A stretch of 64,000 nucleotides of DNA from Candidatus Parcubacteria bacterium (lineage in GTDB: Bacteria > Patescibacteriota > Patescibacteriia > Patescibacteriales > UBA12075): positions 1,235 to 65,234 of the forward strand of contig PKTK01000002.1 of assembly GCA_002869165.1 (NCBI GenBank), given 5' to 3'. Both the position numbers and the translations under genes were made by a program. This document shows, piece after piece, positions 7,035 through 63,200 of the stretch. Positions within the stretch are counted from its first letter, which is position 1, and the number at the start of each line of letters is the position of its first letter. Under the pieces are notes generated by a model that saw only the letters and a program-made list of their open reading frames with translations, was not told the origin of the DNA and did not search any database.

Positions 7035-7115
7035 ATAAAAATACTAACATAACAAAAATAAAAAACAACCCCAAGAATATACTTCGAGTTGCTCTTCATT
7101 GTAATTCAATAATTA

Positions 7116-7286
7116 CTACACAGTGATAGCTTGCACTGGACAAGCATCTTTGGCTTTTTCGGCGCATTCTGAATTTGGGTCTATTACTTCTGATTTTCCA
7201 TTTGCACCTAGTTTAAAACCTGCGGGACACATTGCTACACATGCTCCGCAACCAATACATTTATCAAGATCAACTTGTGATGGCAT
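7116..7286 (-). CDS. 4Fe-4S ferredoxin (56 aa)
   Basis: My own translation: MPSQVDLDKCIGCGACVAMCPAGFKLGANGKSEVIDPNSECAEKAKDACPVQAITV. It has CxxCxxCxxxCP plus a distal C...CP. It falls below the ORF-track size cut-off. Confidence 0.8.
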   Translation of the reverse strand: MPSQVDLDKCIGCGACVAMCPAGFKLGANGKSEVIDPNSECAEKAKDACPVQAITV

Positions 7287-7394
7287 AAATTTATGTTTTT
7301 AAATTATTAAATATGAATTAATTTTATCAATTTTATTCAAAGTTAGCAACTATTTTCTGTGGAAATATATATTTTTATTTAATTTTAGCCAATT

Positions 7395-25645: not shown

Positions 25646-25739
25646 TTGTCATCTCGAACGGAGTGAGAGATCCCTTAAACATGAAATAGTTCACGGCTAA
25701 GGGATTTCTCCTTCCGCTTCGCTACACTCGAAATGACAA
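25646..25739. mobile_element. 94-bp GC-rich MITE-like element (TTGTCAT...ATGACAA) in the aspS leader
   Basis: ttgtcatctcgaacggagtgagagatccc ... gggatttctccttccgcttcgctacactcgaaatgacaa. Same family and relative position as the glyQS copy. Confidence 0.7.
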
Positions 25740-25751
25740 AATTTAATTAAT

Positions 25752-25965
25752 AAAAAAATTCGTCCTAGTTTCAGTATTAATAAATACTGAAACTAGGACG
25801 AATTTTCTTCGCGGTACCACCTAGATTCTCTGTTTTTTAACAAAGCTCTCAAACTGCTATAACGGGCTTACCCGGCAGGTTCTAGTCACTTTTTATTCAA
25901 GCTTTCTTCCTGCTCCTTCCTCAAGTGTTGGCTTGAGTCAAATGGATTTAAATATTTAATTGTAT
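25752..25965 (-). promoter_or_regulatory. T-box riboswitch leader of aspS
   Basis: Minus strand reads AAUCUAGGUGGUACCGCGAAG, a near-consensus T-box. CUAGG can pair with CCUAG of the terminator arm. The terminator has 21-nt arms (25758-25778 / 25784-25804) plus U7. A GAC triplet lies in the candidate specifier region. Confidence 0.85.
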
Positions 25966-26002
25966 TGCTATTATAAATAAAAAAAATCAAAATGTCAATA
26001 AA

Positions 26003-27961: not shown

Positions 27962-28094
27962 AGTTACTTTAATTTCTAAAATATAAATTTTAAATCCTAA
28001 ATAAATCCAAAATTCCTAATTTTTTAAATATTTGAGAATTTTAATTTGATATTTGTTTAGGATTTATTATTTAGTATTTAGGTTTTCATTGGTA

Positions 28095-37748: not shown

Positions 37749-37757
37749 ATATTTTAT

Positions 37758-37857
37758 TTGTCATTTCGTAAGGAGTGAAACGACTAGAGAAATCTCTTGA
37801 ACATCATCAGTATTAAAACCGTCTAAGAGATCTATTCGCTTCGCTACGAGATGACAA
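37758..37857. mobile_element. 100-bp MITE-like element (TTGTCAT...ATGACAA) in the rpsE-rplO spacer, where rpmD normally sits
   Basis: ttgtcatttcgtaaggagtgaaacg ... ttcgcttcgctacgagatgacaa. Same family as 15362-15472 and 25646-25739. Confidence 0.7.
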
Positions 37858-37872
37858 GCAATTTGTAATCTT

Positions 37873-40061: not shown

Positions 40062-40185
40062 AATATTATTATTTAATCATAGTGCAAATCTACAAACGAA
40101 ATGCAAATCTACAAATTTATACTATCTACATTTAAAAATTATTTTCATGTGCCCCATTTATGGCGGAGCTCCGCAAAGCGGATAA
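40062..40185. repeat. operon-spacer element related to family B
   Basis: After the upstream stop (minus strand): CCGC-tttg-CGG mini-hairpin, CCGCCATAAATGGGGC, then repeated GTAGATTTGCA words. Confidence 0.55.
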
Positions 40186-40371
40186 CTACCAGCTAGATCT
40201 AGTTACTCCTGGCAAATCACCATTTTCCGCAAGTTCTCTAAAACAAATACGGCACAGGTCAAAATCTCTCATATATCCATGATTTCTGCCACATCTCCAA
40301 CATCTTCTTACTATTCTAGTTGAATATTTTGGTTTTCTTTTCGCTTTTGCGATTAATGCTTTTCTAGCCAT
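40186..40371 (-). CDS. rpsN: 30S ribosomal protein S14, zinc-binding short type
   Basis: 61 aa, CWRCGR...CRIC. Confidence 0.93.
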
Positions 40372-40934: not shown

Positions 40935-41043
40935 AATTGTTTTATAATCCTAATACTACAAATGATATCCGAATACTACAAATCTATTTTCTTAAACATT
41001 CGGATATGCCCCGTTTGTAGTTGGGGCTCGCTGAAGGCGATAA
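40935..41043. repeat. operon-spacer element, family B (ATATCCGAAT ... ATTCGGATAT)
   Basis: About 80 percent identical by eye to 43915-44024. Minus strand: mini-hairpin TCGC-cttca-GCGA, GCCCCAACTACAAACGGGGC, then a 10-bp inverted repeat ATATCCGAAT/ATTCGGATAT. Confidence 0.75.
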
Positions 41044-41364
41044 CTAATCTACTACTTGATCACATTTCTTACAAACTCTGAATTTTTTCTTACCTTTAGA
41101 TCCTTCGTTTGTTTGGTGACCTATTCTAGTTGGTTTTGAACATTTAGGACAAACCAACATCACATTTGAAATATTCATTGCAGCCGGGAATTCAATTCTT
41201 TGCCCTTTTTCACCTTGTCTTCTTGGTCTCATGTGCTTAATAGACAAATTCAAACCTTCCACGCTAACACGGTTTCTATCTGTGAAAATTTGCAAAACCT
41301 TGCCTGTTTTTCCTTGGTCTTTACCAGCTAAAATTATTACTTTGTCACCTTTCTTAATATTCAT
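41044..41364 (-). CDS. rplX: 50S ribosomal protein L24 (with C-terminal zinc-ribbon-like CPKC...CKKC)
   Basis: IKKGDKVIILAGKDQGKTGKV KOW motif. Confidence 0.92.
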   Translation of the reverse strand: MNIKKGDKVIILAGKDQGKTGKVLQIFTDRNRVSVEGLNLSIKHMRPRRQGEKGQRIEFPAAMNISNVMLVCPKCSKPTRIGHQTNEGSKGKKKFRVCKKCDQVVD

Positions 41365-41368
41365 AGTT

Positions 41369-41517
41369 CTACGAATTACGAATCCGTTACGAATTTACGA
41401 ATCCGCTTATTTAATCTCTTTGATTATTTTATAACTAATTTTTATTTTGGCCTTTAATACTCCTCAATACATTTATTAAAATTATTCGTAAATTCGTACA
41501 GTTTCGTATTTTTGTAG
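41369..41517. repeat. operon-spacer long hairpin element, family A (TACGAAT words)
   Basis: 34-nt arms at 41369-41402 and 41484-41517 (15 bp perfect TACGAATTTACGAAT/ATTCGTAAATTCGTA) with an 81-nt loop. Paralog at 43077-43226. Confidence 0.8.
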
Positions 41518-41526
41518 CCTATTTTT

Positions 41527-41898
41527 TTACAATACTTCTGGAGCCAAACTTGCAATCTTGAAAAAGCCTGCTCTTCTCACTTCTCTGGCGATTGGGCCAA
41601 AAATACGAGTTGCTTTTGGTTCCTTTTTCTCTTTATCAATAATTACACAAGCATTTTCATCAAATCTTAAATATGTGCCATCCTTTCTTCTAATTTCTTT
41701 TTTGGTTCTTACTACTACAGCATGCAAAACGTCACCTTTTTTAATAGCTGTATGTGGGGTCGCTTGCTTAACAGTTACTGTGATTATTTCACCCACTCCA
41801 GCATATCTTTTCTTATATCCACCCAAAACCCTGATACACTGTACTTTACGTGCTCCTGAATTGTCCGCTACTTTAATTTTTGATTCTACTTGTATCAT
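41527..41898 (-). CDS. rplN: 50S ribosomal protein L14
   Basis: [27 protein letters not shown]. Confidence 0.95.
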
Positions 41899-41961
41899 AT
41901 AAATTAGTTTAAAGTTGAAAGTAAAAAACTTTTTAACTTTATAAACTTTTTAACTTTCTGC

Positions 41962-42255
41962 TTATTTAATTACTCTCCATCTTTTATTCTTGCTCATTGG
42001 GCGACATTCAGTAAATGTTACTTTATCACCTTCTTTAAACTCATTTTTTTCATCATGGCATTTATATTTCTTGGAAACTGTATATCTTTTTTTGTATTTT
42101 GGATGCACCACAACTCTGTCTACTCTAACAACAACTGTTTTATCCATTTTGTCAGACACAACAACACCGTGAAATTTCTTTCTGATAACTTCCTTTTGTT
42201 TGTGCTCAACTTTTTTTGGAGTTGCTTTCTTGGTTGTTTTTTTCTTCTCTGCCAT
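41962..42255 (-). CDS. rpsQ: 30S ribosomal protein S17
   Basis: [28 protein letters not shown]. Confidence 0.93.
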
Positions 42256-42363
42256 TTTTTTATATGTGACTTTCGGAACCCTTGGGATCCTTGGGACTTT
42301 TGAAATTATATCTCAAGAGTCCTAAGGATCTCAACAATCCTAATGGTCTTATCTTAATTTAAA
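42256..42363. repeat. operon-spacer hairpin element, family C
   Basis: cttgggatccttgggacttttgaaa faces tctcaagagtcctaaggatctcaa. Confidence 0.65.
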
Positions 42364-42594
42364 CTATTTATTTTCTTTATTTTCTACTTTAGTTTCAGTT
42401 TTCACTTCTTTCTTGTTTGCATTTAAAAGTGTCATAATCTGAGCTACGGTTACCTTGATCTTTCTAATCTCTCTTACATCTTTAAGTTGTTTATTCGCAT
42501 CCTTAAATCTAAGATCTCTTAGCTTGTCACGAGACTCAGCCAAAATCCTATGTAATTCTGTTTCAGTTTTCTTTTTTAATTCTTTAATATCCAT
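42364..42594 (-). CDS. rpmC: 50S ribosomal protein L29
   Basis: Start at MDIKELKKKTETEL (Met11 of the track ORF). Confidence 0.88.
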   Translation of the reverse strand: MDIKELKKKTETELHRILAESRDKLRDLRFKDANKQLKDVREIRKIKVTVAQIMTLLNANKKEVKTETKVENKENK

Positions 42595-42662
42595 ATACAA
42601 TATATTTATTCGTATGTGCGACATCCTTTAGTTAAAATAATAGTGTCGCGCTTCAAAAATAA

Positions 42663-43067
42663 TTATTTTTTGACAACTTTACACTTCACTGGAAGTTTGT
42701 AAGCGGCTAATCTCATTGCCTCTACAGCCATCTTTTCTTCAACACCATCCATTTCAAACATGATCATGCCAGGTTTTACTACTGCTACATAGTGATCAAC
42801 AGCACCTTTACCTTTACCCATAGGCATTTCACCACCTTTGGCTGTTACCGGTTTGTCGGGAAAAATTCTGATCCATATTTTACCACCACGCTTCGTATAT
42901 CTAGTCATAACTCTTCTAGCAGCTTCAATTTGACGTGATGAAACCCAGCAAGGCTCCATAGTTTTTAGTGCATATTGACCAAAGCTAATGGTAAGCTTTC
43001 TAGAAGCTTTTCCGCCTCTTCTGCCTTTATGTGATTTTCTGTATTTAGTTTTCTTTGGCATTAACAT
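42663..43067 (-). CDS. rplP: 50S ribosomal protein L16
   Basis: [16 protein letters not shown]. Confidence 0.95.
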
Positions 43068-43076
43068 ATTTGTCTC

Positions 43077-43226
43077 CTACGAATTACGAATCCTTTGCGA
43101 ATTTACGAATCCATCTATTTAATCTATTTGATTATTTTATAAACTATTTATTTTAAATTGCTAGAAAATACTTCCAGGTACTACGCAAATTTATTCGTAA
43201 ATTCGTACCGATTCGTATTTTCGTAG
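43077..43226. repeat. operon-spacer long hairpin element, family A (paralog of 41369-41517)
   Basis: 34-nt arms at 43077-43110 and 43193-43226 with an 82-nt loop. The loop shares ttataaaataatcaaa.agattaaata with the other copy. The right arm abuts the TAG stop of rpsC. Confidence 0.8.
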
Positions 43227-43227
43227 C

Positions 43228-43914
43228 CTATTTTTTCTTTCCGATTACTTCTCCTTTTTTATCGTCTGTTTTTTCAAATTTATCACCTTTATAAATCCAA
43301 ACTTTGATTCCGATCACACCGTAAGTGGTATTAGCAATACCTCTGGCATAGTCAATATCAGCTCTTAGAGTATGAAGTGGAATCTTGCCACTGGTCAACA
43401 TTTCTGATCTGGCAATTTCAGCACCATTCAATCTTCCTGATACAATCACTTTCACTCCTAAGGCGCCAGCTCTTTCTACTCTAGACATAGTTTGCTTCAT
43501 TACTCTTCTAAATGGCATACGCTTTTCTAGATCTAAAGCCATAAGTTGTACGTTAATCTGTGCGCTCAAGTTAGGTCTATCGAATTCGTAAATATTTAGA
43601 TTTATATTGCCTGGTTTATAATTTTTTAAAAATTTAGTATGAACTTTTTTCTTTAAATCATCAGCACCTGAACCACCTCTACCAATAATAATTCCTGGTT
43701 TTGCTGTATAGATTCCTACATTAACTTTTTTAGCATCTCTTTCAACCTCTACCCTGTCGACACCAGCTTCTCTTAATTCTTTCATTAAAAACCTTCTCAT
43801 AGCAACGTCTTGCTGAACGTTCTTGCTATAGTCTTTTCCGCTGGCATACCATTTTGATGGCCATGCTTTACTTACACCGATTCTAAAAATTTTTGGATTA
43901 ATCTTTTTTCCCAT
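43228..43914 (-). CDS. rpsC: 30S ribosomal protein S3
   Basis: [15 protein letters not shown] domain, [10 protein letters not shown]. Confidence 0.95.
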
Positions 43915-44024
43915 ATTTTTATAATACGAATACTACTAATTATATCCGAATACTACGAACCTTTTTTATAAATCAATTCGGATATGCCCTGTTCGTAGTT
44001 AGGGCTTCCCGAAGGAAACATCAT
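43915..44024. repeat. operon-spacer element, family B (paralog of 40935-41043)
   Basis: Minus strand: TTCC-UUCG-GGAA tetraloop hairpin right after the rplV stop, GCCCTAACTACGAACAGGGC, then the ATATCCGAAT/ATTCGGATAT inverted repeat. Confidence 0.75.
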
Positions 44025-44985: not shown

Positions 44986-45000
44986 AATATTATTTCTAAA

Positions 45001-45158
45001 CTAATACGCGAATTAATTACTAATTTACGAATTCTATTTCTATAGCTTCTATCCCTTTATTTTATTTTTTAATAACCTGCTTTATCTTACGAATTTACTA
45101 ACTCTATCAAAGGAAATATTTAATAGTATTAGTAAATTCGTAAGCAATTAGTTATTAG
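45001..45158. repeat. operon-spacer hairpin element, family A-like (TACGAAT / TACTAAT words)
   Basis: Perfect 16-bp pairing between cttacgaatttactaa (45086-45101) and ttagtaaattcgtaag (45129-45144). The outer arms 45001-45032 / 45127-45158 are imperfect. Confidence 0.7.
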
Positions 45159-45166
45159 TTTAGGAT

Positions 45167-48147: not shown

Positions 48148-48403
48148 AAAATTCTTTTAGAAAGGCTAGTTTTTAAAAACAAAAAACTGGAACCTTTAGG
48201 ACCCAGCCGACAATACAAAAGCCATATTTATGACTCTATTCTAAATATTTATTTAGATTAATATGAATGTCGATTATCTCCTAGTAAAAATTATTCTTTC
48301 CTTAAGCACTTTCGTTGTTAAACGAGTTACCAAAGACCAAAATAATTCCTTATTTTAATGATACTAGTATATACTATTTTCAAAAATAAATCAAGTCCCC
48401 TAG

Positions 48404-48525
48404 CTAATTACTAATCATTTACAAATTTACTAATATTTTTACCTAATATTAGTTAATTTAAAAACAAAATCTGTAGTGAACAAAATTAATCAGAATTAGT
48501 AAATTCGTAATTAATTAGTAATTAG
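48404..48525. repeat. operon-spacer long hairpin element, family A-like
   Basis: 31-nt arms ctaattactaatcatttacaaatttactaat (48404-48434) and attagtaaattcgtaattaattagtaattag (48495-48525), inside the 386-bp rpsJ-rplC spacer. Confidence 0.7.
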
Positions 48526-48533
48526 TTTAGTTT

Positions 48534-50312: not shown

Positions 50313-50864
50313 TTAATCTTCAACTTCTTCCAAATAATACCTGTCCTCTTCTATTATCTCTTCAGCGTTCTTTTTTCTATCACCTGGAATTGCCCAGTTC
50401 TTTTTCTTCTTATTTTTTTTAATAAATTGTTCTTTTTCTCTTGCTATAGTTGAAAAACTGTGCCAATCATTATCTTCTTCATCTCCCTCCTCCTCTTCAT
50501 CATCGAATAATTCTTCTAATTCAATATCATCATACTCCTTAGACATATATGGATCATCTAAATCACCATAATAATCATCATCTGACAAATTTTTAACTTC
50601 ATTTTCTGCTATTATTTTATCTAAGCTTAGCTGATTTTCATCTATTTCTTGGTCACTTTTCCAAATTGCAATATCGCGATTTATTTTATCAGCCAACTCC
50701 TCTTCTGTCAAGCCTCTCACCGGAGACCTTCCCACCACTATCTTCTCATATTCATCTACACTCATAACAACAAATGGATCATTTTGTCCACTTTGATCAA
50801 AAGCTATAATTCTATCACCTGTCTTCCTTGATAAATCTATTAATTTTTGCAATTTATTATCCAT
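50313..50864 (-). CDS. hypothetical acidic protein inserted between fusA and tuf
   Basis: 183 aa with a D/E-rich centre. The N-terminal PFVVMSVDEYEKI faintly resembles Phd/YefM-type antitoxin N-termini (weak). Confidence 0.5.
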   Translation of the reverse strand: MDNKLQKLIDLSRKTGDRIIAFDQSGQNDPFVVMSVDEYEKIVVGRSPVRGLTEEELADKINRDIAIWKSDQEIDENQLSLDKIIAENEVKNLSDDDYYGDLDDPYMSKEYDDIELEELFDDEEEEGDEEDNDWHSFSTIAREKEQFIKKNKKKKNWAIPGDRKKNAEEIIEEDRYYLEEVED

Positions 50865-50899: not shown

Positions 50900-50993
50900 C
50901 TACGAAAATACAAATCAATACGAATTTACAAATCGGATAATTACGAACATTATAAAATTATTCGTAAATTTGTATTAATTTGTATTTTCGCAG
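50900..50993. repeat. operon-spacer hairpin element, family A-like (TACGAAA / TACAAAT words)
   Basis: 33-nt arms at 50900-50932 and 50961-50993. I count 29 of 33 positions complementary. Confidence 0.7.
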
Positions 50994-51015: not shown

Positions 51016-53091
51016 TTATTTCTTCTCTGCAGTAATTTTTTCAGCAATATTTTTTGGTACTTCTGAATAATGTAAAAATTCCATAGTATAATTTGCTCTA
51101 CCTTGAGACATACTTCGTAGCTGTGTAGCGTAACCAAACATTTCAGATAATGGAACACTGGCATTTACCACCTTTGCATTTGCTCTATCTTCCATTTGTC
51201 CAATTTGACCACGTTTCGAATTCAAGTCTCCAACAATACTTCCCATATATTCTTCAGGGGTAACAACTTCAACTTTCATGATTGGTTCAAGTAGAACTGC
51301 ATTTGCTTTTCTACAAGCTTCTTTAAAACCAAAGATTGCTGCCATTTTAAAAGCTGATTCAGAAGAGTCAACTTCATGATATGAACCATCATATACTGCA
51401 ACTTTAACATCTACCATAGGAAAACCAGCAATAACACCAGAATCCATAGCCTCTTTAATACCTTTTTCTATCGCTGGAACATAATCAGCTGGAACAACAC
51501 CACCTTTGATCTCGTTTAAAAATTCAAAGCCAGCACCTTCTTCTTGTGGTTAAACTCTAAGCCAACAATGACCGTATTGTCCCCTGCCCCCTGATTGCTT
51601 GATGTATTTACCTTCTGCTTCAGCTGTTTGTCTGATTGTTTCTCTGTATGATACTTGAGGCTGACCGATATTAGCTTCTACCTTAAACTCTCTTTTCATA
51701 CGATCAATAATAACATCCAAATGAAGTTCTCCCATACCTGAAATCAAAGTTTGATTTGTTTCCTCATCAGTTTCTACTCTAAATGTTGGGTCTTCTTCAG
51801 CAAGTTTTTGCAAAGCAAGTCCCATTTTTTCTTGGTCTGCTTTTGTTTTAGGTTCAACCGCAATCTTAATAACAGGCTCTGGAAAAGTAATTGACTCCAT
51901 CAAAAGCTTTCTTGATTCATCACAAAGAGTATTACCAGTCACTGTTCCTTTTAGACCAATTACAGCAGCAATATCACCTGCATACACTTCACTAACTTCC
52001 TCTCTGTGATTGGCATGCATTCTTACAAGTCTTCCAATTCTTTCTTTGTTTCCACTTGAAGTGTTGTATACATATGAACCAGATTTTAATACTCCAGAAT
52101 AAACTCTCACAAAACAAAGTTTACCAACAAATGGATCAGTGGCAATCTTAAAAGCAAGTCCAGCAAAAGCTTCATTATCACTTGCTTTAACTGGGATCTC
52201 TTTTGTCTCATCATTTATATCCAAACCAACTAGCTCTTTTACGTCTAGTGGAGATGGAAGATAGGCAATCACAGCATCAAGCGCATGTTGTACGCCGATA
52301 TTCTTAAGAGCAGATCCTGCCATAACTGGAAAAAGTTGAGTTGCTAATACTCCCTTTCTGATAGCTCCTTTTAATTCTTCTACAGTAATTTCCTGTCCAT
52401 CAAGATATTTTTCGGTCAAAGCATCGTCAACTTCTACCACTCTTTCAATCATTTCATTTCTTAATTCTTCACATTTTGCTTTAATGTCTTCAGGAATGTC
52501 AATTTCTACTATTTGCTCACCATGCATTCCTTCAAATTTGTAAGCCTTCATAAGAATAAGATCAACAATACCACTTAGGTTGTCTTCAGCGCCAATTGGA
52601 AATTGGATAGCTACAGCGTTTGGATTCAATCTATCTCTGATTGATTTAAGTGACATATCAAAATCACCACCTAGCTTATCCATCTTATTTACAAAACAAA
52701 GTCTAGGAACATTATATTTATCAGCTTGTCTCCAAACTGTTTCAGACTGAGGTTCAACACCAGCAGCACCATCAAATACTGCTACCGCACCATCAAGCAC
52801 ACGTAAAGAACGCTCTACTTCTACAGTAAAGTCAACGTGACCTGGAGTATCAATAATATTTAAACGATGATCTTTCCAAAAGGCTGTAGTAGCAGCTGAA
52901 GTGATAGTAATACCTCTTTCTTTTTCCTGCTCCATCCAATCCATATCAGACTCACCATCATGAGTTTCTCCAATTTTATGTTTTTTACCAGTGTAAAAAA
53001 GTACCCGTTCAGTAAATGTGGTCTTCCCCGCATCAATGTGAGCCATGATACCTATATTTCTGGTTTTTTCAAGTGAATATTCTCTAGACAT
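51016..53091 (-). pseudogene. fusA: elongation factor G interrupted by a single in-frame TAA (51550-51552); otherwise full length and colinear
   Basis: [18 protein letters not shown], ...[46 protein letters not shown]... Both track ORFs (51550..53091 and 51016..51447) are in the same frame (105-nt offset). The 'pseudogene' call is only the literal code-11 reading. Confidence 0.85.
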
Positions 53092-53194: not shown

Positions 53195-53716
53195 TTATTC
53201 GTTTTCTTCTTCGAATTTTACAAATCTTTCAATTAAGTCGGTGCCTTCTTCGTCAGTTACTGCTACATAGCCCTCTTTGGTACTACTAAATTCGAAGTAT
53301 AGGGTTACAGAATATTTATTATCTCTTACCTTAACTTCTTCTCCCACTAAAGGAGTTTTGTCGCTCTTTCTTAATTCAACAAACACACTTTCCTTTTCTT
53401 GATCAACTGTTCCTTCTATTTTAAGTGGACTACTAACAACACTATCTTCTTCAATGTTAATAGTTAATGACTTGTTTACTGTTTCGCTGTTTTCTCCATC
53501 AATGATCTTATCAATGACTTCTTGATCTTGTTTTGTCTGCAAATTAATATCTTCAATCGCCTGCTTTGCTCCTTCATAATCTTCAGTTAACTCAACTGGA
53601 GTTTTTTTTGAAAAAAAAGAGCCACCATAGACAAGGAATGCTATTAGTAATACTACTACTAATAACCCTATCAGTGCGGCATAACCTTTTTTGTTATCTA
53701 AAAGTGTAAACATCAT
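53195..53716 (-). CDS. membrane-anchored hypothetical protein inserted between rpsG and fusA
   Basis: N-terminal TM helix (AALIGLLVVVLLIAFLVYGG), then a beta-rich ectodomain. Confidence 0.55.
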   Translation of the reverse strand: MMFTLLDNKKGYAALIGLLVVVLLIAFLVYGGSFFSKKTPVELTEDYEGAKQAIEDINLQTKQDQEVIDKIIDGENSETVNKSLTINIEEDSVVSSPLKIEGTVDQEKESVFVELRKSDKTPLVGEEVKVRDNKYSVTLYFEFSSTKEGYVAVTDEEGTDLIERFVKFEEENE

Positions 53717-53791
53717 ATTAGCTTTTAGGTATTAGCTTTTAGCTTTTAGGGCTTTCCTACAAGCTAGAAGCTAAAAGCTAGTAGCTAGGAT
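53717..53791. repeat. operon-spacer inverted word repeat (TAGCTTTTAG words)
   Basis: tagcttttaggtattagcttttagcttttagg faces ctacaagctagaagctaaaagctagtagcta. Confidence 0.55.
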
Positions 53792-56920: not shown

Positions 56921-58066
56921 TTATTCTATACTATTTAGTTTTTTTGTGCCAATCTTTCTTTTCATACCTTGCAAAGGAATTGTTATAAAGAAAGTTGTAC
57001 CTTGATTTTGCTTATCTATTGGAACATTAGACTGTTTCTTGGGATCAAGTAAAAGATCAAAGCTGGGTGACTGAAACCATATCCTACCTCCACTTTTTTC
57101 AATAATCGCTTTTGTAATATAAAGACCCAATCCTGTACCAACTGACTCCATTCTCTTTACATTATCTGCTCTAAACATCTTAGTAAAGACATTTGGTTGT
57201 TGTTCTCTTGGTATGCCACAACCATTATCTGATATCTTTATCAATACATCTTTTTCTGTTTTTCTAAGCACTATCTGAACTGTACCACCTTCAGGGGTGT
57301 ACTTGACAGAATTGGAAATAAGATTCTCAAAAAACATTTTGGTTAAGCGCCTATCAAGATTGATCAGTGGAATATCATCATAAAGTCTTTCAATGTGTAG
57401 CTTCTTTTCTTTGATTTCTTCAGTAAATTTTTCCAGAGCTTTATCAGCTCTTTCAGTGATATCAGTTGGCTCAGGTTCAATCGAAAAGGTACCAACATCT
57501 ATTCTTGATACATCCAACAAAGCATTCACCAGATCAATCAATCTTTCGTTACTTTCATAAGCTTCGGTTAAATATTTATGTTGCTCCTCGTTCATTTCAC
57601 CAGCGTCTCCTGCCAAAACAAAATCAATATACCATTTTATGATTGATAACGGTGTCCTCAACTGATGACTAGCCAAAGCAACAAAATCCGTTTTTGCTTG
57701 GGACAGTTCTTTGTGTTTGGATACGTCTTGAGCAATTCCGGTATTTAGACGTGACATAAGTTCATTAACAGCGTGTGCTAGTTGACCAATTTCATCTTTA
57801 GTGCCAGTTTTTAGATTTTCTGAAAAATTACCAGCTGCCATCTCTTCTATCTTAAATACGACATTTGCAAGTCTTTTGGAGAACCACCTACTTATTGTAT
57901 AAGCAAAAATAAAAGCAACTGTTAAAAGTATATAAGCAAGAATAAACAAATATGCCCAATCTATCTCTGTTAAAAACTTTACTAAAAAAATTACTATCAA
58001 AGTAAAAATAAAAAAGACCACCAATATCTTATCAGACAAATTTATACTCCTTGTTTTTATTTTCAT
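56921..58066 (-). CDS. HAMP-domain sensor histidine kinase
   Basis: Two TM segments, HAMP, H-box SHQLRTPLS, DNGCGI, GTGLGL. Confidence 0.88.
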   Translation of the reverse strand: MKIKTRSINLSDKILVVFFIFTLIVIFLVKFLTEIDWAYLFILAYILLTVAFIFAYTISRWFSKRLANVVFKIEEMAAGNFSENLKTGTKDEIGQLAHAVNELMSRLNTGIAQDVSKHKELSQAKTDFVALASHQLRTPLSIIKWYIDFVLAGDAGEMNEEQHKYLTEAYESNERLIDLVNALLDVSRIDVGTFSIEPEPTDITERADKALEKFTEEIKEKKLHIERLYDDIPLINLDRRLTKMFFENLISNSVKYTPEGGTVQIVLRKTEKDVLIKISDNGCGIPREQQPNVFTKMFRADNVKRMESVGTGLGLYITKAIIEKSGGRIWFQSPSFDLLLDPKKQSNVPIDKQNQGTTFFITIPLQGMKRKIGTKKLNSIE

Positions 58067-58344
58067 TTATTAAATATAGCTAATTTTAGGAAAATTTAAC
58101 CTAAAAATTACAAAAAACTTTGGTTTTTTGCCAAGCCATATGTTTATTAATAATATACACTTATTTTACAATAATTTACAATTTTTGTAAAACTTTAGTT
58201 ATCAACAAATAAAAAAAAAAATACATTGACAAATTTAAATAAATATGATATAATTTTAAGTTAAAATTAAAGACTTGAGTTATTTGTATTACTAGTATAT
58301 AATCTCTATTATTAGCAAAAACAAATAACATAACTAAAAAAACA

Positions 58345-60135
58345 ATGAAAAACATTTTTAAAAATCTATTAAAAAACAAAACTTCTAGAAATATCATACT
58401 GCTAGTTTTGATTGTCGGTCTGGTTTTTTCAGGAGTTTCTTTGGCTGTTAAAAATAATGAAAGCCAGGAAGAAAACAAGGAATTTATCAAAACTGTATCT
58501 ACTCAGATTATTAATGGCGATGAAGCGAATAAGAGCCAAATAGAAACTGTTGGTGTAGTTGAAGCCCAATCTAGTATTGATGTAATTTCCACCATTTCAG
58601 GAACTCTTAAAGGTTTGTACTTTAATGTAGGGGATGAAGTTTATCAAAACCAATCTCTTGCTCAATTATACAGTTCAACTGCATTAACAAGTTTAAACAA
58701 TGCTCAAACAAACTTAAATAATATTCAGAGTTCACTTACTACCACTCAAAGAATAACTGACGAATCTATCAGGCAAACAGAGATTGGTGTAGAACAAGCA
58801 AATATTGGCCTAGAAAATGCCAAAAAATCTATCCAAGTTGCTGAACTAGGTCTTAAAACAGCTCAGGATAATTTAAACAATGCTATAAAAATAAAGGAAA
58901 AGTCTTTAAAAGATCAAAAAAATAAAGCTGTAATAAACTTTAATGCATATGTTAATACTATATTTAGTGCCCGTGACCAAGTAGCACTACTTATCAATGC
59001 GAACACCTCTGAATTATTGAGTTCTAATCTTTGAGCAAAAAATCCCGAAACTATTTCTGAAACTAAATCAGCTTATGCTTTAGTTAATAAAAAATATAGC
59101 GAACTAAAAAATATCTCTCCTAGCCTGGAAACAATTGAAAGCAATTTACAAGATAGTGTAGATGGACTTAGTTTAAGTGAAAACATGCTAAACAAAGCTA
59201 TTAATCTTTTAGATAACACTGTAAGTGGTGGATCTTATTATGAATCTACACTTGCTAGTCAAAAAAGTTCTTTTACTCTACTTCGTGCCAATGTAATTAC
59301 GGCATTAAACGGAGCCAAAACAGAACTTGAGGCCTTATCAACTGTTGATCTAGCAAATTCTACAGATATCACAGCCTTAAACAATGCTGTAAGTGCTGCA
59401 GAAGCTCAATTATAAATTGCTATTACAGCCAAAGATAATGCAGAAATTGCTGTTAAAAACGCTAAACAAGCGGTTGAAAGCGCTAAAGTTGCTCAAAGCC
59501 AACAACTCTTAAGCGTAGAAACTCAGGTTGATAGTGCAAGAGGTCAATACAATCTAAGTAGCGCTCAAACTGCTGACTTGAATATCAAGGCTCCAATTAA
59601 AGGTACTATCACTGAAAAATACGTTGAATTAGGTACTGAGGTAAGTATTGGTCAAAAAATTGCACAAATTTCTCAATTAAACAACATGAAAATTGTTGTT
59701 AATGTTTCCAGCGAGGATATTTACAGAATTCAACTAGGCCAAACTGTGATGATTGAAAATAACCTTGAAGGGATTATTTCTTCTATAAATCCTTCCGCTG
59801 ATCCCGTTACCAAAAAAGTAAAGGCTGAAATTATTTTTAATAACGAAAATAAAGAATTGATTCAAGGAACATTTGTAAATGTTTCAATTCCAGTTGAAAA
59901 AATAGAAAAAAGTAAAAGCGACTCAGTTTTCATTCCCTTGCGAGCTGTAACAATTACTGCAAACGAAAAATATGTTTATGTTAATGAGAATGGCTTTGCC
60001 AAAAAAATACTTGTAGAATTTGGGAAAACAGAAAACGCTTTAGTTGAGATCACCAGTGGTCTTACAAGTGGTGATGAATTGATAACTGACGGAGGCAAGC
60101 TACTTGAAGATGGAGATGAGATTATAATTAAATAA
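58345..60135 (+). pseudogene. RND/ABC efflux periplasmic adaptor (HlyD/MFP family) with in-frame TGA (59032-59034) and TAA (59413-59415)
   Basis: The three track ORFs (58345, 59185, 59578) share one frame. N-terminal TM anchor, long coiled-coil hairpin, and C-terminal barrel (IKAPIKGTITEKYVELG ... DGDEIIIK). The sequence stays coiled-coil-like across both stops. Confidence 0.8.
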
Positions 60136-60240
60136 GATTCTAGAGACCCTTGATATCTTTGGGATATTTGAGAATCTGCTTACTTACAGATCTTAATTTC
60201 CCAAAAAACAAGACTCATAATAATCGTACTCAAATATTAT
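60136..60240. repeat. spacer element with family C-like vocabulary between the adaptor and RND genes
   Basis: agagacccttgatatctttgggatatttgagaatc ... cagatcttaatttccc. Confidence 0.4.
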
Positions 60241-63200
60241 ATGAAAACTACTAACCACCCGGGAGATAAAAAACCGGATATACTTTCAAAGGAAGAATAC
60301 TAAAAAAATCTAAACGAAAAATTAGACAAAGGACTAAAGAAGACAGAAAAATCTGTGATTGGTTTTTTTATCCGAAATTTTCGTTTTACATATCTATTAC
60401 TCCTAACCATGATTTTTCTTGGGACATATTCTCTTATGACTCTTCCTAAAGAGTCTGAACCAGAGATCGAAGTTCCTTTTGGTGTGGTGACTACAATATA
60501 TCCAGGAGCAAATCCTACTGATGTTGAAGAACTTATTACCAATAAGATAGAAAAGGAAATAAATAATCTAGACAACTTAAAGATATATACTTCTAGCTCA
60601 GGGGCTGGTTTTTCCTCTATCTTTGTAGAATTTGAAGCTGAAGCTGACTTGCAAGAATCTTTTAGAAAACTAAGAGAAGCTGTTGATAGAGCTGAGCCAG
60701 AACTACCTAGTGATGTTGAAAATCCACAAGTATCTGAAATTAATTTCAATGACTTTCCAATTGTAACCTATTCTTTGGTTGGCGACTATACAGATGTGGA
60801 ATTAAAAGATTACGCGAATATTATCAAAGATGAGCTCGAAACAATATCTGATGTTTCAGAAGTTGATATTTTAGGTGCTCTTGAACAAGAATTTCAAATT
60901 ATTGTAAATGAGAAAAAACTTAATTCATACAAGCTAAATTTATCAAGTCTAAGCCAAGCTATCAGTTCTGCAAATTTTTCCTTACCAGCTGGAGATATTG
61001 ATGTTGATGGCTTTACTTATGGCATTAGAGTAAAAGGGCGTTTTACAAGTATCGAAGATCTTGAATCAATTGTAGTGACATCTCTTGATGGAACTCCTAT
61101 TCTTCTGTCTGATGTAGCACAAATCAGTGATTCATTCAAAGAAAGGAATACAATTTCAAAAATTGGTTTTTCTGATACACCATCAAAAAATACAATTTCT
61201 TTACAAATCAGAAAAAAAACTGGTGGAAATATCTTGAAGATCGTTGACAATGCCAATCAAAAGATTGATGAAATCCAAAATAGTAATTTAATTCCAACTG
61301 ATCTAGAAATCCTAAAAACCAACGATAATTCAATTTTTATCAAAGATGATATTAAAACTCTCGGTACTAGTGGTATTCAAACTGTTATTCTTATTACCTT
61401 GATTCTTCTTATGGTGCTTAGTTTGCAAGGTGCTATCATCACAGCTCTAGCTGTACCATTTGCTTTTCTAACTGCATTTATCTTTTTAAATCTACAAGGC
61501 ATGACCTTAAACTCAATGGTGCTTTTTTCACTAGTACTATCTCTTGGTCTTATGGTTGATAATGCAATTGTAATTATTGAGGGTGTTAATGAATATATAT
61601 CCAAGCACAAAAAGAATTCCTATGAAGCTGCTATGCTTTCAGTGTGGAATTTTAAGTGGGCAATCACCGCTGGAACCTTAACTACAGTATCTGCATTTTT
61701 ACCCATGCTTCTTGTTTCAGGAATCATGGGCCAGTACATTGCTACCCTACCTAAAACTATTACCGTTACTTTACTCTCTAGTTTATTTGTAGCGTTAGTT
61801 ATCATTCCTACTTTAGTAACTAGATTTTTGAAAGTAAAAGTAAATGGAAATGCTAAACATAGAGATAAAAAAAGACATCTATTTATAGAAAATAAAATTT
61901 CAAAGCTACATATTAAATATGAAGCAATACTAAGAAATATTTTGCCATATAAGAAAAAAAGGAGAAGAATCATTGCTATATCATGGATTGTTTTTTTCTT
62001 GGCTGTATCTGTTCCAATAAGTGGTCTTATGAAAATTGAAATGTTTGGTGACATGGACCTTGATTATTTCTATGTAAATATCGAAACTCCTGTAGGGACT
62101 AGTCTAGAAGCTACTGAAAGGATAGTGGCTAGCACAGAAGAAATTGTTAGAAATATTCCCGAACTTGATAACTATGTGTTGAATGTTGGGGCATCTGCTG
62201 CTTCTGGTTTTGCTGGAGATACTGGTGCTACCGCTACTCACCTAGCAGGCGTTACCGTAAATCTAGTTGACCCTAGTGAAAGAGATAGAAAAAGTTATGA
62301 AATTGCGGATTCTCTTCGTGATCAGTTTGCTTCTATTCAAGGAGCTAAATTTTCAGTAACAGAGCTTACTGCTGGACCTCCAACTGGAGATCCAATTGAA
62401 GTTAGAATATCCGGAGATGATTCTAGTACCATTGCAGACATTACCGCTCAAGTTCTTGACTGGATGAATAATAAAGAAGGTGTAATAAATGCGGAAGACA
62501 ATCTAGAAAATTCAGCTGGAGAATTTACTTTTGAAATAAATAAACAAAAAGCCAACTACTACGGGTTAAATACTTTATCAATCGCCTCAGCTCTACGAAG
62601 CGCTAAATATGGAGCTTCGGCTGGAACTGTAAATGTTAATGGTGAAGATGTTGATATTACAGTAAAATACGATGATTCAGAATTCCAAACTATCAACGAC
62701 CTGAATGAAATATTACTTACAACCGCCACTGGAGAAAGTATTCCTTTAAAAGAAGTTGCCTCGGTTACATTAGAACCTGCTCTACTTTCCATTAGCCATA
62801 GAGATGGTGATGAAACAGCCATTGTAAGCGCCGACACTGAAGCTGGCGCAAATTTACAAGACATCTTAGCTGATTTTGATGAATACCAAAGTAAAATAGA
62901 CCTACCAGAAGGTTATTCTATTTCTGTTGGTGGAGAAGTTGAGGACATACAACAATCATTTACATAAATATTCTTATCAATGATTTTATCTGTTGTATTG
63001 ATTGCAGTTATCTTGGTCTTACAGTTTAACTCATTCAAACAACCATTCCTAATTCTATTTACTGTACCGCTTTCGTTTGTCGGTGTAATATTTGGTTTAA
63101 ATTTACTACTTATGCCGTTTTCATTCCTAGCCTTTATTGGTATAGTTTCTTTATCAGGAATTGTAGTAAATGACTCAATCGTATTAGTTGACAGAATAAA

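Follow-up and report, generated by a model that had tools for sequence, protein, structure and literature searches.

Palindromic repeat families at the gene junctions of a ribosomal-protein operon in Patescibacteria

Among described bacterial repeats, Correia elements are marked by duplication of a TA target, ~26-bp repeats with a conserved core, an IHF site, and the creation of promoters. Repetitive extragenic palindromes (REPs), like BIME and REPIN elements, are GTAG-tagged palindromes mobilized by RAYT (Di Nocera et al. 2013, PMC3733652; Bertels and Rainey 2011, PMC3116915), a GTAG REP being defined as a single stem-loop of 6-13 bp with GTAG (or CGTC) left unpaired at one end (PMC3733652). 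Here, we analyzed a 64,000-nt stretch of DNA from a Candidatus Parcubacteria bacterium (contig PKTK01000002.1, positions 1,235 to 65,234; hereafter, the window), in which palindromic elements lie between the genes of a ribosomal-protein operon. We conclude that these elements are real and that they spread by duplication with a constrained fold. By analogy with the systems above, the families that we term A, B, and C, together with hairpins resembling A, are probably REP/REPIN-like or MITE-like repeats (MITEs being miniature transposable elements with inverted repeats) in families spread over Patescibacteria.

Paralogous spacer elements in the window

An earlier note on this DNA, made from its letters alone, had described two pairs of paralogous spacer elements at different ribosomal-protein gene junctions, and the coordinates, junctions, and geometry given there were reproduced. 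Family A comprises A1 (41369-41517, minus strand, L14/L24 junction), with 34-nt arms of TACGAAT units around an 81-nt loop (34+81+34) and the termini CTAC...GTAG, and A2 (43077-43226, minus strand, S3/L16), with an 82-nt loop (34+82+34). In a global alignment, 121 of 153 columns are identical (79%; z = 16 versus shuffles), and the loop block TTATAAAATAATCAAA.AGATTAAATA, which had been reported as shared, is identical at 26 of 27 positions. The arms have the length proposed but are less perfect than was implied: gapless Watson-Crick pairing joins 23 of 34 positions, the inner 14-15 bp being perfect and the outer part needing a 1-nt bulge. Family B comprises B1 (40935-41043, minus strand, L24/L5) and B2 (43915-44024, minus strand, L22/S3), whose identity, put at about 80% by eye, was measured at 77% (87 of 113 columns in a global alignment; z = 13 versus shuffles). 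The structural details claimed for this family were all found in both copies, namely a hairpin directly after the stop codon (UCGC-cuuca-GCGA in one and UUCC-uucg-GGAA in the other), the motif GCCCY-AACUACRAAC-RGGGC, and a perfect 10-bp inverted repeat, ATATCCGAAT/ATTCGGATAT; compensatory pair differences are already seen between B1 and B2.

Chance similarity of AT-rich spacers, for which the 30-36% G+C content of the genome would speak, or an assembly artefact is a vanishingly improbable explanation. The z values of 13-16 show that the identity is not low-complexity noise, while cross-family control alignments (A versus B and A versus C) stayed at shuffle level, with z = -1.7 and 0.4. Pattern counts agreed: the GCCCY..RGGGC motif had 2 matches versus 0.00 expected from dinucleotide shuffles, and the family A arm core TACGAATTTACGAAT, with up to two mismatches, had 12 matches versus 0.21 expected, all within 41.3-51.0 kb. 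TACGAA was also the top enriched hexamer of the operon spacers (17-fold). The same genome was present in three independent assemblies (JGI 3300007102, ENA ERZ794999, and Logan SRR5894289), with equal spacer lengths and just 7-17 scattered single-nucleotide differences per 12-20 kb. Since three independent assemblies agree, the spacers are real and not products of assembly.

Searches were made with a model of B1 and B2 (R1), a model of a two-hairpin module derived from a nine-sequence seed (R2), and a family A model (R3). Such searches had been proposed in the earlier note, and they returned further copies both in the window and in related genomes. Thus, the two pairs are real, but the phenomenon is broader than two pairs, extending to a third member of each family, to family C and the A-like hairpins, to nearly every junction of the operon, and to many Patescibacteria. 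With R3, A1 and A2 scored 67.4 and 71.2 bits, and A3 (50900-50993, minus strand, between fusA and a 183-aa open reading frame [ORF]) scored 94.8 bits; A3 has arms of the A1/A2 type around a short 26-nt loop, with 30/34 Watson-Crick pairs and three G-U pairs. B1 and B2 scored 138 and 135.5 bits with R1, and their modules (40992-41046, including the stop codon, and 43970-44024) scored 70.3 and 63.8 bits with R2. A diverged copy, B3 (40062-40185, minus strand, S14/S8; module at 40135-40188), scored 37 bits with R1 and 57.5 bits with R2 (E = 6e-12); in most relatives, the element is absent from S14/S8, and the spacer there is plain AT-rich DNA. In B1, the module is followed by the 10-bp inverted repeat and by two TTTGTAGTATTMGGAT direct repeats, which resemble a degenerate inverted module with ..AAAAC at its end, and in B3 by two TTTGTAGATTTGCA repeats, while the module tail in B1 and B2 pairs with the downstream ATTCGGATAT.

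Family C has three members, all on the minus strand: C1 (39547-39647, S8/L6), an imperfect ~30-bp hairpin of YTTRRGA units; C2 (42256-42363, L29/S17), with a folding z of -6.5; and C3 (44601-44709, S19/L22). C1 and C2 are 72% identical (z = 10), and C2 and C3 are 62% identical (z = 6). Two further minus-strand hairpins resemble family A, one nested and made of TACGAAT/TACTAAT units (44986-45166, L2/S19; R3 29.9 bits at 45077-45158) and one, in the 5' part of the S10/L3 spacer, made of TTAGTAA/TACGAAT units (48401-48528; R3 27 bits). A long imperfect hairpin at the S5/L15 junction (37749-37872, minus strand; -33.1 kcal/mol, z = -5.1) was assigned to no family and has a repeat partner at 25699-25740. 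Genomes of the Candidate Phyla Radiation (CPR) lack L30 at this junction, and L30 is absent from the window's gene order as well, which on the minus strand reads S12-S7-ORF-fusA-ORF-tuf-S10-L3-L4-L23-L2-S19-L22-S3-L16-L29-S17-L14-L24-L5-S14-S8-L6-L18-S5-L15-SecY (gene names follow the window ORFs and the Pfam labels that this genome carries in its other assemblies). Such hairpins stand at 10 or more junctions of the minus-strand S10/spc operon, and nearly all junctions longer than 60 nt form a long hairpin when folded (z from -3 to -7). The elements are built of short units (CTACRAAT or YACGAAT, ~8-10 nt apart) in inverted arrays, and each nearly fills the gap from stop codon to start codon.

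The S3 protein groups the organism with metagenome-assembled genomes (MAGs) labeled Falkowbacteria or Parcubacteria, the closest species representative being 79% identical and the best protein anywhere 83%; judged by this protein, the genome is that of a Falkowbacteria-like Patescibacterium.

The two-hairpin module and family A in other genomes

The R1 search showed that the ~50-nt 5' part of family B is common to other genomes. This module consists of RGTTAT, hairpin 1 (4-6 bp, loop CUUCG), hairpin 2 (5 G+C-rich bp, loop NNCUACRAAU), and ACAUNCGAAU, with CUACGAAU as the hairpin loop sequence. R2 found 19 copies in the genome loci, all three window copies included, and an exact-pattern scan of metagenome contigs followed by the model gave 68 hits on 60 contigs, making 87 hits and 77 distinct copies; copy counts per genome rest on genome fragments. 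In the nine-sequence seed, 98.7% of the cells were paired and 6/9 pairs showed double compensatory changes, whereas slid controls were paired in 15-54% of cells (15-65% overall), and 0/500 shuffles matched the observed covariation score. The metagenome copies had the same covariation, and hairpin 1, which lay outside the search pattern, had compensatory changes in 4/4 pairs. G-U pairs made up just 3/474 paired cells in the module stems.

An identical 47-nt module core occurred at 10 loci from several samples, and the neighbors of the module are diverse housekeeping genes. An association with phages was not supported, with 1 match in 2.9 million viral contigs. Within ribosomal-protein operons, the module is found in both orientations, with ~9 sense copies (three in the window, three in locus L006, two in L087, and one in L002) versus ~7 antisense copies (two in L003 and others in L087, L029, L006, L146, and L002). 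Head-to-tail arrays were seen in L125, L128, L139, and L140. In L002, two inverted modules stand 33 nt apart directly upstream of rpsL (306-449), a REPIN-like doublet. The 3' half of B1 and B2 (ATTCGGATAT-c-ATTTGTAG..., to ..AAAAC before the ATG) can be lined up by eye with the right-hand inverted module of L002, minus its G+C stems, and family B thus appears to be a module joined to a degenerate inverted module. Separately, a perfect 14-16-nt palindrome, (T)CCCGAGTACTCGGG(A), lies within or beside module copies at L087 10741-10842, L138 354-418, and L128 ~1050-1100, a nesting that suggests a mosaic or nested build-up of repeats.

The module often abuts genes. Of the 77 distinct copies, 24 have the GTTAT end 2 nt from the start codon of an antisense gene, 12 have it at a stop codon, and 17 at a T-run; in operons, the other end also lies 0-13 nt from the neighboring gene. 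Insertion into spacers of originally a few nucleotides, as in compact relatives, would give such abutment anyway. Beside the GTTAT (5') end, no conserved target was seen, only AT-rich flank.

Family A could likewise be followed across genomes. A 2.4-kb contig (L146; L16 81% identical) has an A element at S3/L16 with the same boundaries and termini as A2 and the same right flank (CTACGAATTACGAATC...GATTCGTAATTCGTAG|GAGA..ATG), but with an 18-nt loop unlike that of A2; its inner-arm changes relative to A2 are compensated on both arms. Since this ortholog occupies the same junction, A2 is older than the split between the two genomes, and since A1 shares the 81-nt loop of A2 whereas the L146 loop is different, A1 is a later intragenomic copy. 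R3 also found TTACGAATTACGAATC..TACRAATTTACRAAT arms in ribosomal-protein spacers of L006 (S8/L6), L087 and L061 (S10/L3), L012 (S19/L22), and others. In L006, L087, L146, and L061, 27-30 of 34 arm positions are identical to those of the window. In L061, a MAG of the Moraniibacteriota, the arms are ~82% conserved even though S3 identity is as low as 49%; arm conservation so far above that of the surrounding proteins implies horizontal spread or strong sequence-specific recognition. CTACRAAT occurs both in the arms of family A and in the hairpin-2 loop, and CGAAT occurs in the module tail; the recurrence of CTACRAAT links families A and B.

Spacer lengths were patchy over 80 related loci. Some Patescibacteria have 3-30 nt throughout, while others have 80-250 nt at many junctions, with hairpins whose arms are built of other short units such as TTAGTTAA, CGATTTCC, and ATTTACAA. 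Relatives with S3 74-83% identical have short spacers (3-30 nt) at the same junctions, the nearest (S3 82-83%) having 27-77 nt at L22/S3 and 29-67 nt at S3/L16, and one relative (a contig from ERR4592246; S3 83% identical) having spacers of 122 and 146 nt. The short spacers of relatives at the same junctions indicate that the elements are lineage-specific gains rather than ancestral leaders.

Together, these results bear out the spread by duplication that the earlier note had proposed: long stretches outside the arms are common to the paralogs, additional copies turned up in the window and in other genomes, and one site is polymorphic, a module upstream of a gene in L018 being absent from L019, where the flanks are 98% identical. 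Arms made of short tandem units, the many distinct families with few copies each per genome, and the closer resemblance of one element's arms to each other than to orthologous arms would also suit a local de novo origin, in which replication slippage and intramolecular template switching on tandem units build and homogenize each element in place and similarity between junctions is convergence. The sharing of non-repetitive loop and spacer sequence (the 26/27 block and 77-79% overall) goes beyond convergence and largely refutes this account for A and B, and with the identical 47-nt module at 10 loci and arms 82% conserved between classes set against it too, we regard it as very unlikely.

The regular units raise another explanation, that the elements are arrays of binding sites for a host DNA-binding protein (nucleoid-associated or regulatory) that organizes or regulates the highly transcribed translation gene cluster. 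The arms do hold 3-5 units at 8-10-nt spacing, about once per helical turn and mirrored on both arms; the unit sequence is conserved across distant lineages; and CTACRAAT recurs in the hairpin-2 loop, the tail, and the family A arms. Yet unrelated units (TTAGTTAA, CGATTTCC, ATTTACAA) stand at the same positions in different genomes, and the covariation shows that hairpin formation is constrained, whereas a double-strand site would not need a hairpin. As no candidate protein emerged either, we give this explanation little credence.

Constraint, mobility, and comparison with known repeats

The reading that we prefer, with moderate confidence, is that the elements are non-autonomous palindromic repeat families new to the phylum, constrained as DNA hairpins by a recognizing enzyme and passive in the transcript. 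Copies have multiplied within the genome and taken over originally tiny spacers between cistrons. On this account, the constraint would act on DNA, as single-stranded hairpins or cruciforms, and not on operon mRNA; such structures are of the kind that a recombinase or transposase binding hairpins would recognize, or else a host protein reading CTACGAAT units. Co-transcription with the operon would then yield 15-35-bp RNA hairpins as a by-product, and these may uncouple the translation of neighboring cistrons or offer sites to double-strand RNases.

Conservation of the structural parts had earlier been taken as a sign of selection on the fold. For the two small hairpins of family B, this is upheld by the pairing, the double changes, and the shuffles described above, but the constraint is probably not on the mRNA, since G-U pairs are nearly absent, both orientations occur in operons, and the folding energies of A1, A2, B1, and B2 are equal in sense and antisense. 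The same observations bear on the view that these are selected intercistronic RNA elements, i.e., processing, stabilizing, or translation-uncoupling sites in polycistronic mRNA whose repeat nature is secondary; as targets of RNase III or another endonuclease, for example, they could make the stability of each cistron independent or leave it with a near-leaderless 5' end. A hairpin at nearly every operon junction is what this view would lead one to see, as are the many independent lineages that have expanded their ribosomal-protein spacers with unrelated hairpin sequences, the repeated occupancy of the same junctions, and the reverse-complement module placed 2 nt before start codons in 24/77 copies and exactly at the 5' end of transfer-messenger RNA (tmRNA) in L126. 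It does not sit well with an asymmetric conserved loop and tail used in both orientations within operons, with module stems almost free of G-U pairs, or with equal folding on both strands. Moreover, spacers of 3-30 nt suffice in close relatives, gene-end abutment is expected from insertion into very short spacers, and long stems are as dense in non-operon spacers. Per kilobase of spacer, the relatives have 0.81 long stems inside operons versus 0.73 outside, and no operon-specific enrichment was found among them; the window's own non-operon structure consists mostly of ordinary terminators. On balance, we regard selected RNA elements as the main rival reading, possible but rather unlikely.

Several observations weigh against our preferred reading of mobile DNA repeats. 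The sense strand folds better in 59 versus 32 spacers of relatives (p = 0.004), and A3, with its G-U pairs, folds at -44.2 kcal/mol in sense versus -35.3 kcal/mol in antisense; this slight sense advantage means that some RNA-level selection is possible. About 10 of the 12 unit-built hairpins of the window lie in translation operons, and the S3/L16, S14/S8, L16/L29, and S10/L3 junctions are occupied in several lineages, which could reflect selection for intercistronic hairpins. An antisense module fills the smpB-ssrA (tmRNA) spacer in at least three genomes (L097, L099/L136, and L126), with stems that differ by compensating changes and, in L126, an end exactly at the tmRNA 5' end; this occupancy reflects a hot spot of insertion or else a function that has been retained. 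Each family has just 2-3 copies in the window, with paralogs ~20% diverged, and this low number and divergence give no sign of current activity there. The L018/L019 difference is 74 nt replacing 19 nt rather than a clean insertion.

Signs of a transposition machinery were also missing. Target-site duplications, for which the earlier note had proposed to look, were found neither as direct repeats flanking the A1, A2, L146, L061, L006, or L087 copies nor at the L018/L019 site. A search of the window ORFs yielded no transposase or HUH protein, and none was prominent among the 25 commonest Pfam families listed for 148 ORFs near copies; the same holds for RAYT (Y1 HUH), with none in the 64-kb window and none among those 25 families. 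A parent insertion sequence bearing the same terminal repeats and coding for a transposase was not seen in the ORF context around the copies (~1.7 Mb of loci, without a direct genome-wide search).

In several respects, the elements nevertheless resemble REPs, which are small extragenic palindromes occurring as singles, as inverted dimers (20-100 bp apart and foldable into a longer hairpin), and as tandem clusters, for the most part between genes in unidirectional or convergent arrangement and immediately downstream of a coding region (PMC3733652). Complementary stem changes that separate sub-families, the lack of target duplication, frequent co-transcription, and a conserved GTAG/CTAC tetranucleotide are further shared traits (PMC3733652). 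In contrast to REPs, the module is made of two adjacent hairpins with a conserved AU-rich tail and a GTTAT head; its head is RGTTAT, and CTAC lies inside the hairpin-2 loop instead of forming an unpaired terminal tag. Family A, as 5'-CTAC...GTAG-3', has the opposite polarity to a GTAG-out REP dimer, and in place of a single G+C-rich stem its AT-rich arms string together 7-nt units. GTAG REPs often show G-T pairing (PMC3733652), which is rare here, no RAYT was found, and Patescibacteria are not among the REP phyla listed in that source.

As in MITEs, terminal inverted repeats are present (the 34-nt family A arms, conserved in other genomes, and the inverted module pair of L002), without the target-site duplication. 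Correia elements and other MITEs (ERIC/IRU, RUP, and BOX) share with the present elements a length of 100-160 bp, terminal inverted repeats, intergenic and intra-operon positions with co-transcription, long hairpins in the RNA that are open to binding or cleavage by RNase III, and polymorphism between related strains (PMC2649163, PMC2229807). Unlike Correia elements, those described here show no TA duplication, no promoter-like excess (41 sites versus 51 expected), far fewer copies per family, and an internal unit periodicity in the arms. They are also not known to share sequence similarity with the Correia consensus. The ends of IS200/IS605 elements and of their miniature derivatives, the palindrome-associated transposable elements (PATEs), which HUH Y1 transposases recognize as single-strand DNA hairpins, offer another parallel, with sub-terminal hairpins of conserved structure, no target duplication, and strand-specific asymmetric ends (PMC6006769). 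Unlike these, the module has no conserved tetra- or pentanucleotide target next to its GTTAT end, and with no conserved flank motif seen, an IS200/IS605-like target was not found; there is likewise no orientation bias in operons co-oriented with replication, and no TnpA or TnpB was seen among the window ORFs or the ORFs near copies.

Other candidates were considered and discarded. TIGR arrays have 36-nt tandem units with box C/D-like motifs, two spacers, and a Tas gene with a Nop domain; the units here are ~52-55 nt, mostly solitary, without box C/D or variable spacer pairs, and no associated gene was found. For integron attC or dif-like sites, the GTTAT...ATAAC polarity is opposite to RYYYAAC...GTTRRRY. 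Described structured RNA families, ribosomal-protein leaders included, gave no Rfam 15 covariance-model match at gathering score in the window, and at E <= 1 the window and the module-rich loci gave only sub-threshold look-alikes of miRNA precursors. An S8-type autoregulatory leader at L24/L5 or S14/S8 is contradicted by the relatives, which mostly have plain AT-rich DNA there, and by the antisense placement of the module elsewhere. A promoter role was rejected as well: the consensus scan of the operon was below chance (the 41 sites above), and by eye the 3' part of the module lacks a properly spaced -10 box before the abutting ATG; terminator-like sites were at or below chance.

Further features of the window and significance of the repeats

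Other structured regions of the window were seen alongside the repeats. The S10/L3 spacer (48148-48400, minus strand), which measures 146-390 nt in all Patescibacteria loci, has a conserved element of the form AACTC-[covarying hairpin]-GAAAGT; after it, and 12-35 nt before rplC, comes a hairpin resembling a terminator (CTGGTTT..ACCAGTTTT). The window's own copy folds at -87.4 kcal/mol in sense versus -61.8 kcal/mol in antisense, with 18 versus 4 G-U pairs, and it had no Rfam match at E <= 1; it looks like an undescribed attenuator-type leader of the L3-L4 operon. The gene for aspartyl-tRNA synthetase is preceded by a structured leader of 308 nt (25695-26002, minus strand; z = -5.3), which ends in a perfect 27-bp hairpin and a T-run (25752-25809); it had no Rfam match at gathering score and may be a T-box-like or other attenuator. 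Unit-built hairpins also occur outside the S10/spc cluster, one of TAGCTTTTAGC units between S7 and an uncharacterized ORF (53717-53791) and one of TAAATCCTAAA units between methionine aminopeptidase-like and Na/Ca exchanger genes (27962-28094).

Two ORFs of the str operon flank fusA, at 50313-50864 (183 aa) and 53195-53716 (173 aa), both on the minus strand. They have no Pfam match, are unrelated to each other, and do not suggest nucleic-acid enzymes by their sequences; by eye, one has a Phd/YefM-like N terminus and an acidic tail, and the other looks like a domain protein with an N-terminal membrane anchor. A 177-aa ORF of like size lies at the matching place (fusA/tuf) in L087/L088. The fusA gene itself has an in-frame TAA at 51550-51552 (minus strand; ..HCWLRV*PQEEG..) that splits it into ORFs of 513 and 143 aa, while the JGI gene call for the same genome is a single 691-aa EF-G; the stop in this sequence copy probably stems from an error at a single base or from variation within the population. 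A small unannotated ferredoxin-like ORF with two CxxCxxC motifs (MPSQVDLDKCIGCGACVAMCPAGF...) lies at 7035-7394 (minus strand), a region that counts as intergenic under the 60-aa ORF cut-off. The cumulative GC skew has its minimum at ~58000-60400, where gene orientation changes from minus to plus, consistent with a replication origin near 58-60 kb.

The genomes of Patescibacteria count as extremely streamlined, and no bacterial gene arrays are more compact and conserved than ribosomal-protein operons. Here, palindromic repeats stand at nearly every junction of such an operon, in families shared across classes of the radiation. Repeat-filled junctions and cross-class families imply that these genomes contain active small mobile or structured DNA and tolerate it in their most highly expressed transcript. 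As a motif, the module is well defined and covarying; it has no Rfam entry, and no publication on such elements in Patescibacteria was found in the searched literature. It provides a handle on the recognizing enzyme, on gene-start and operon annotation in CPR MAGs, and on strain-level differences as a marker.

A bolder idea, by analogy with Cas6, is that the CTACGAAT-bearing hairpins might be sites of a Patescibacteria-specific nucleic-acid-binding enzyme, with transcripts cut at the foot of hairpin 1, although we judge this improbable. If it were true, cutting would produce near-leaderless cistrons and the mature tmRNA 5' end, and the repeats would be a domesticated, genome-wide RNA punctuation rather than junk. 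Should the elements be processing sites, they would show how polycistronic expression works in organisms in which many genes have no Shine-Dalgarno sequence.

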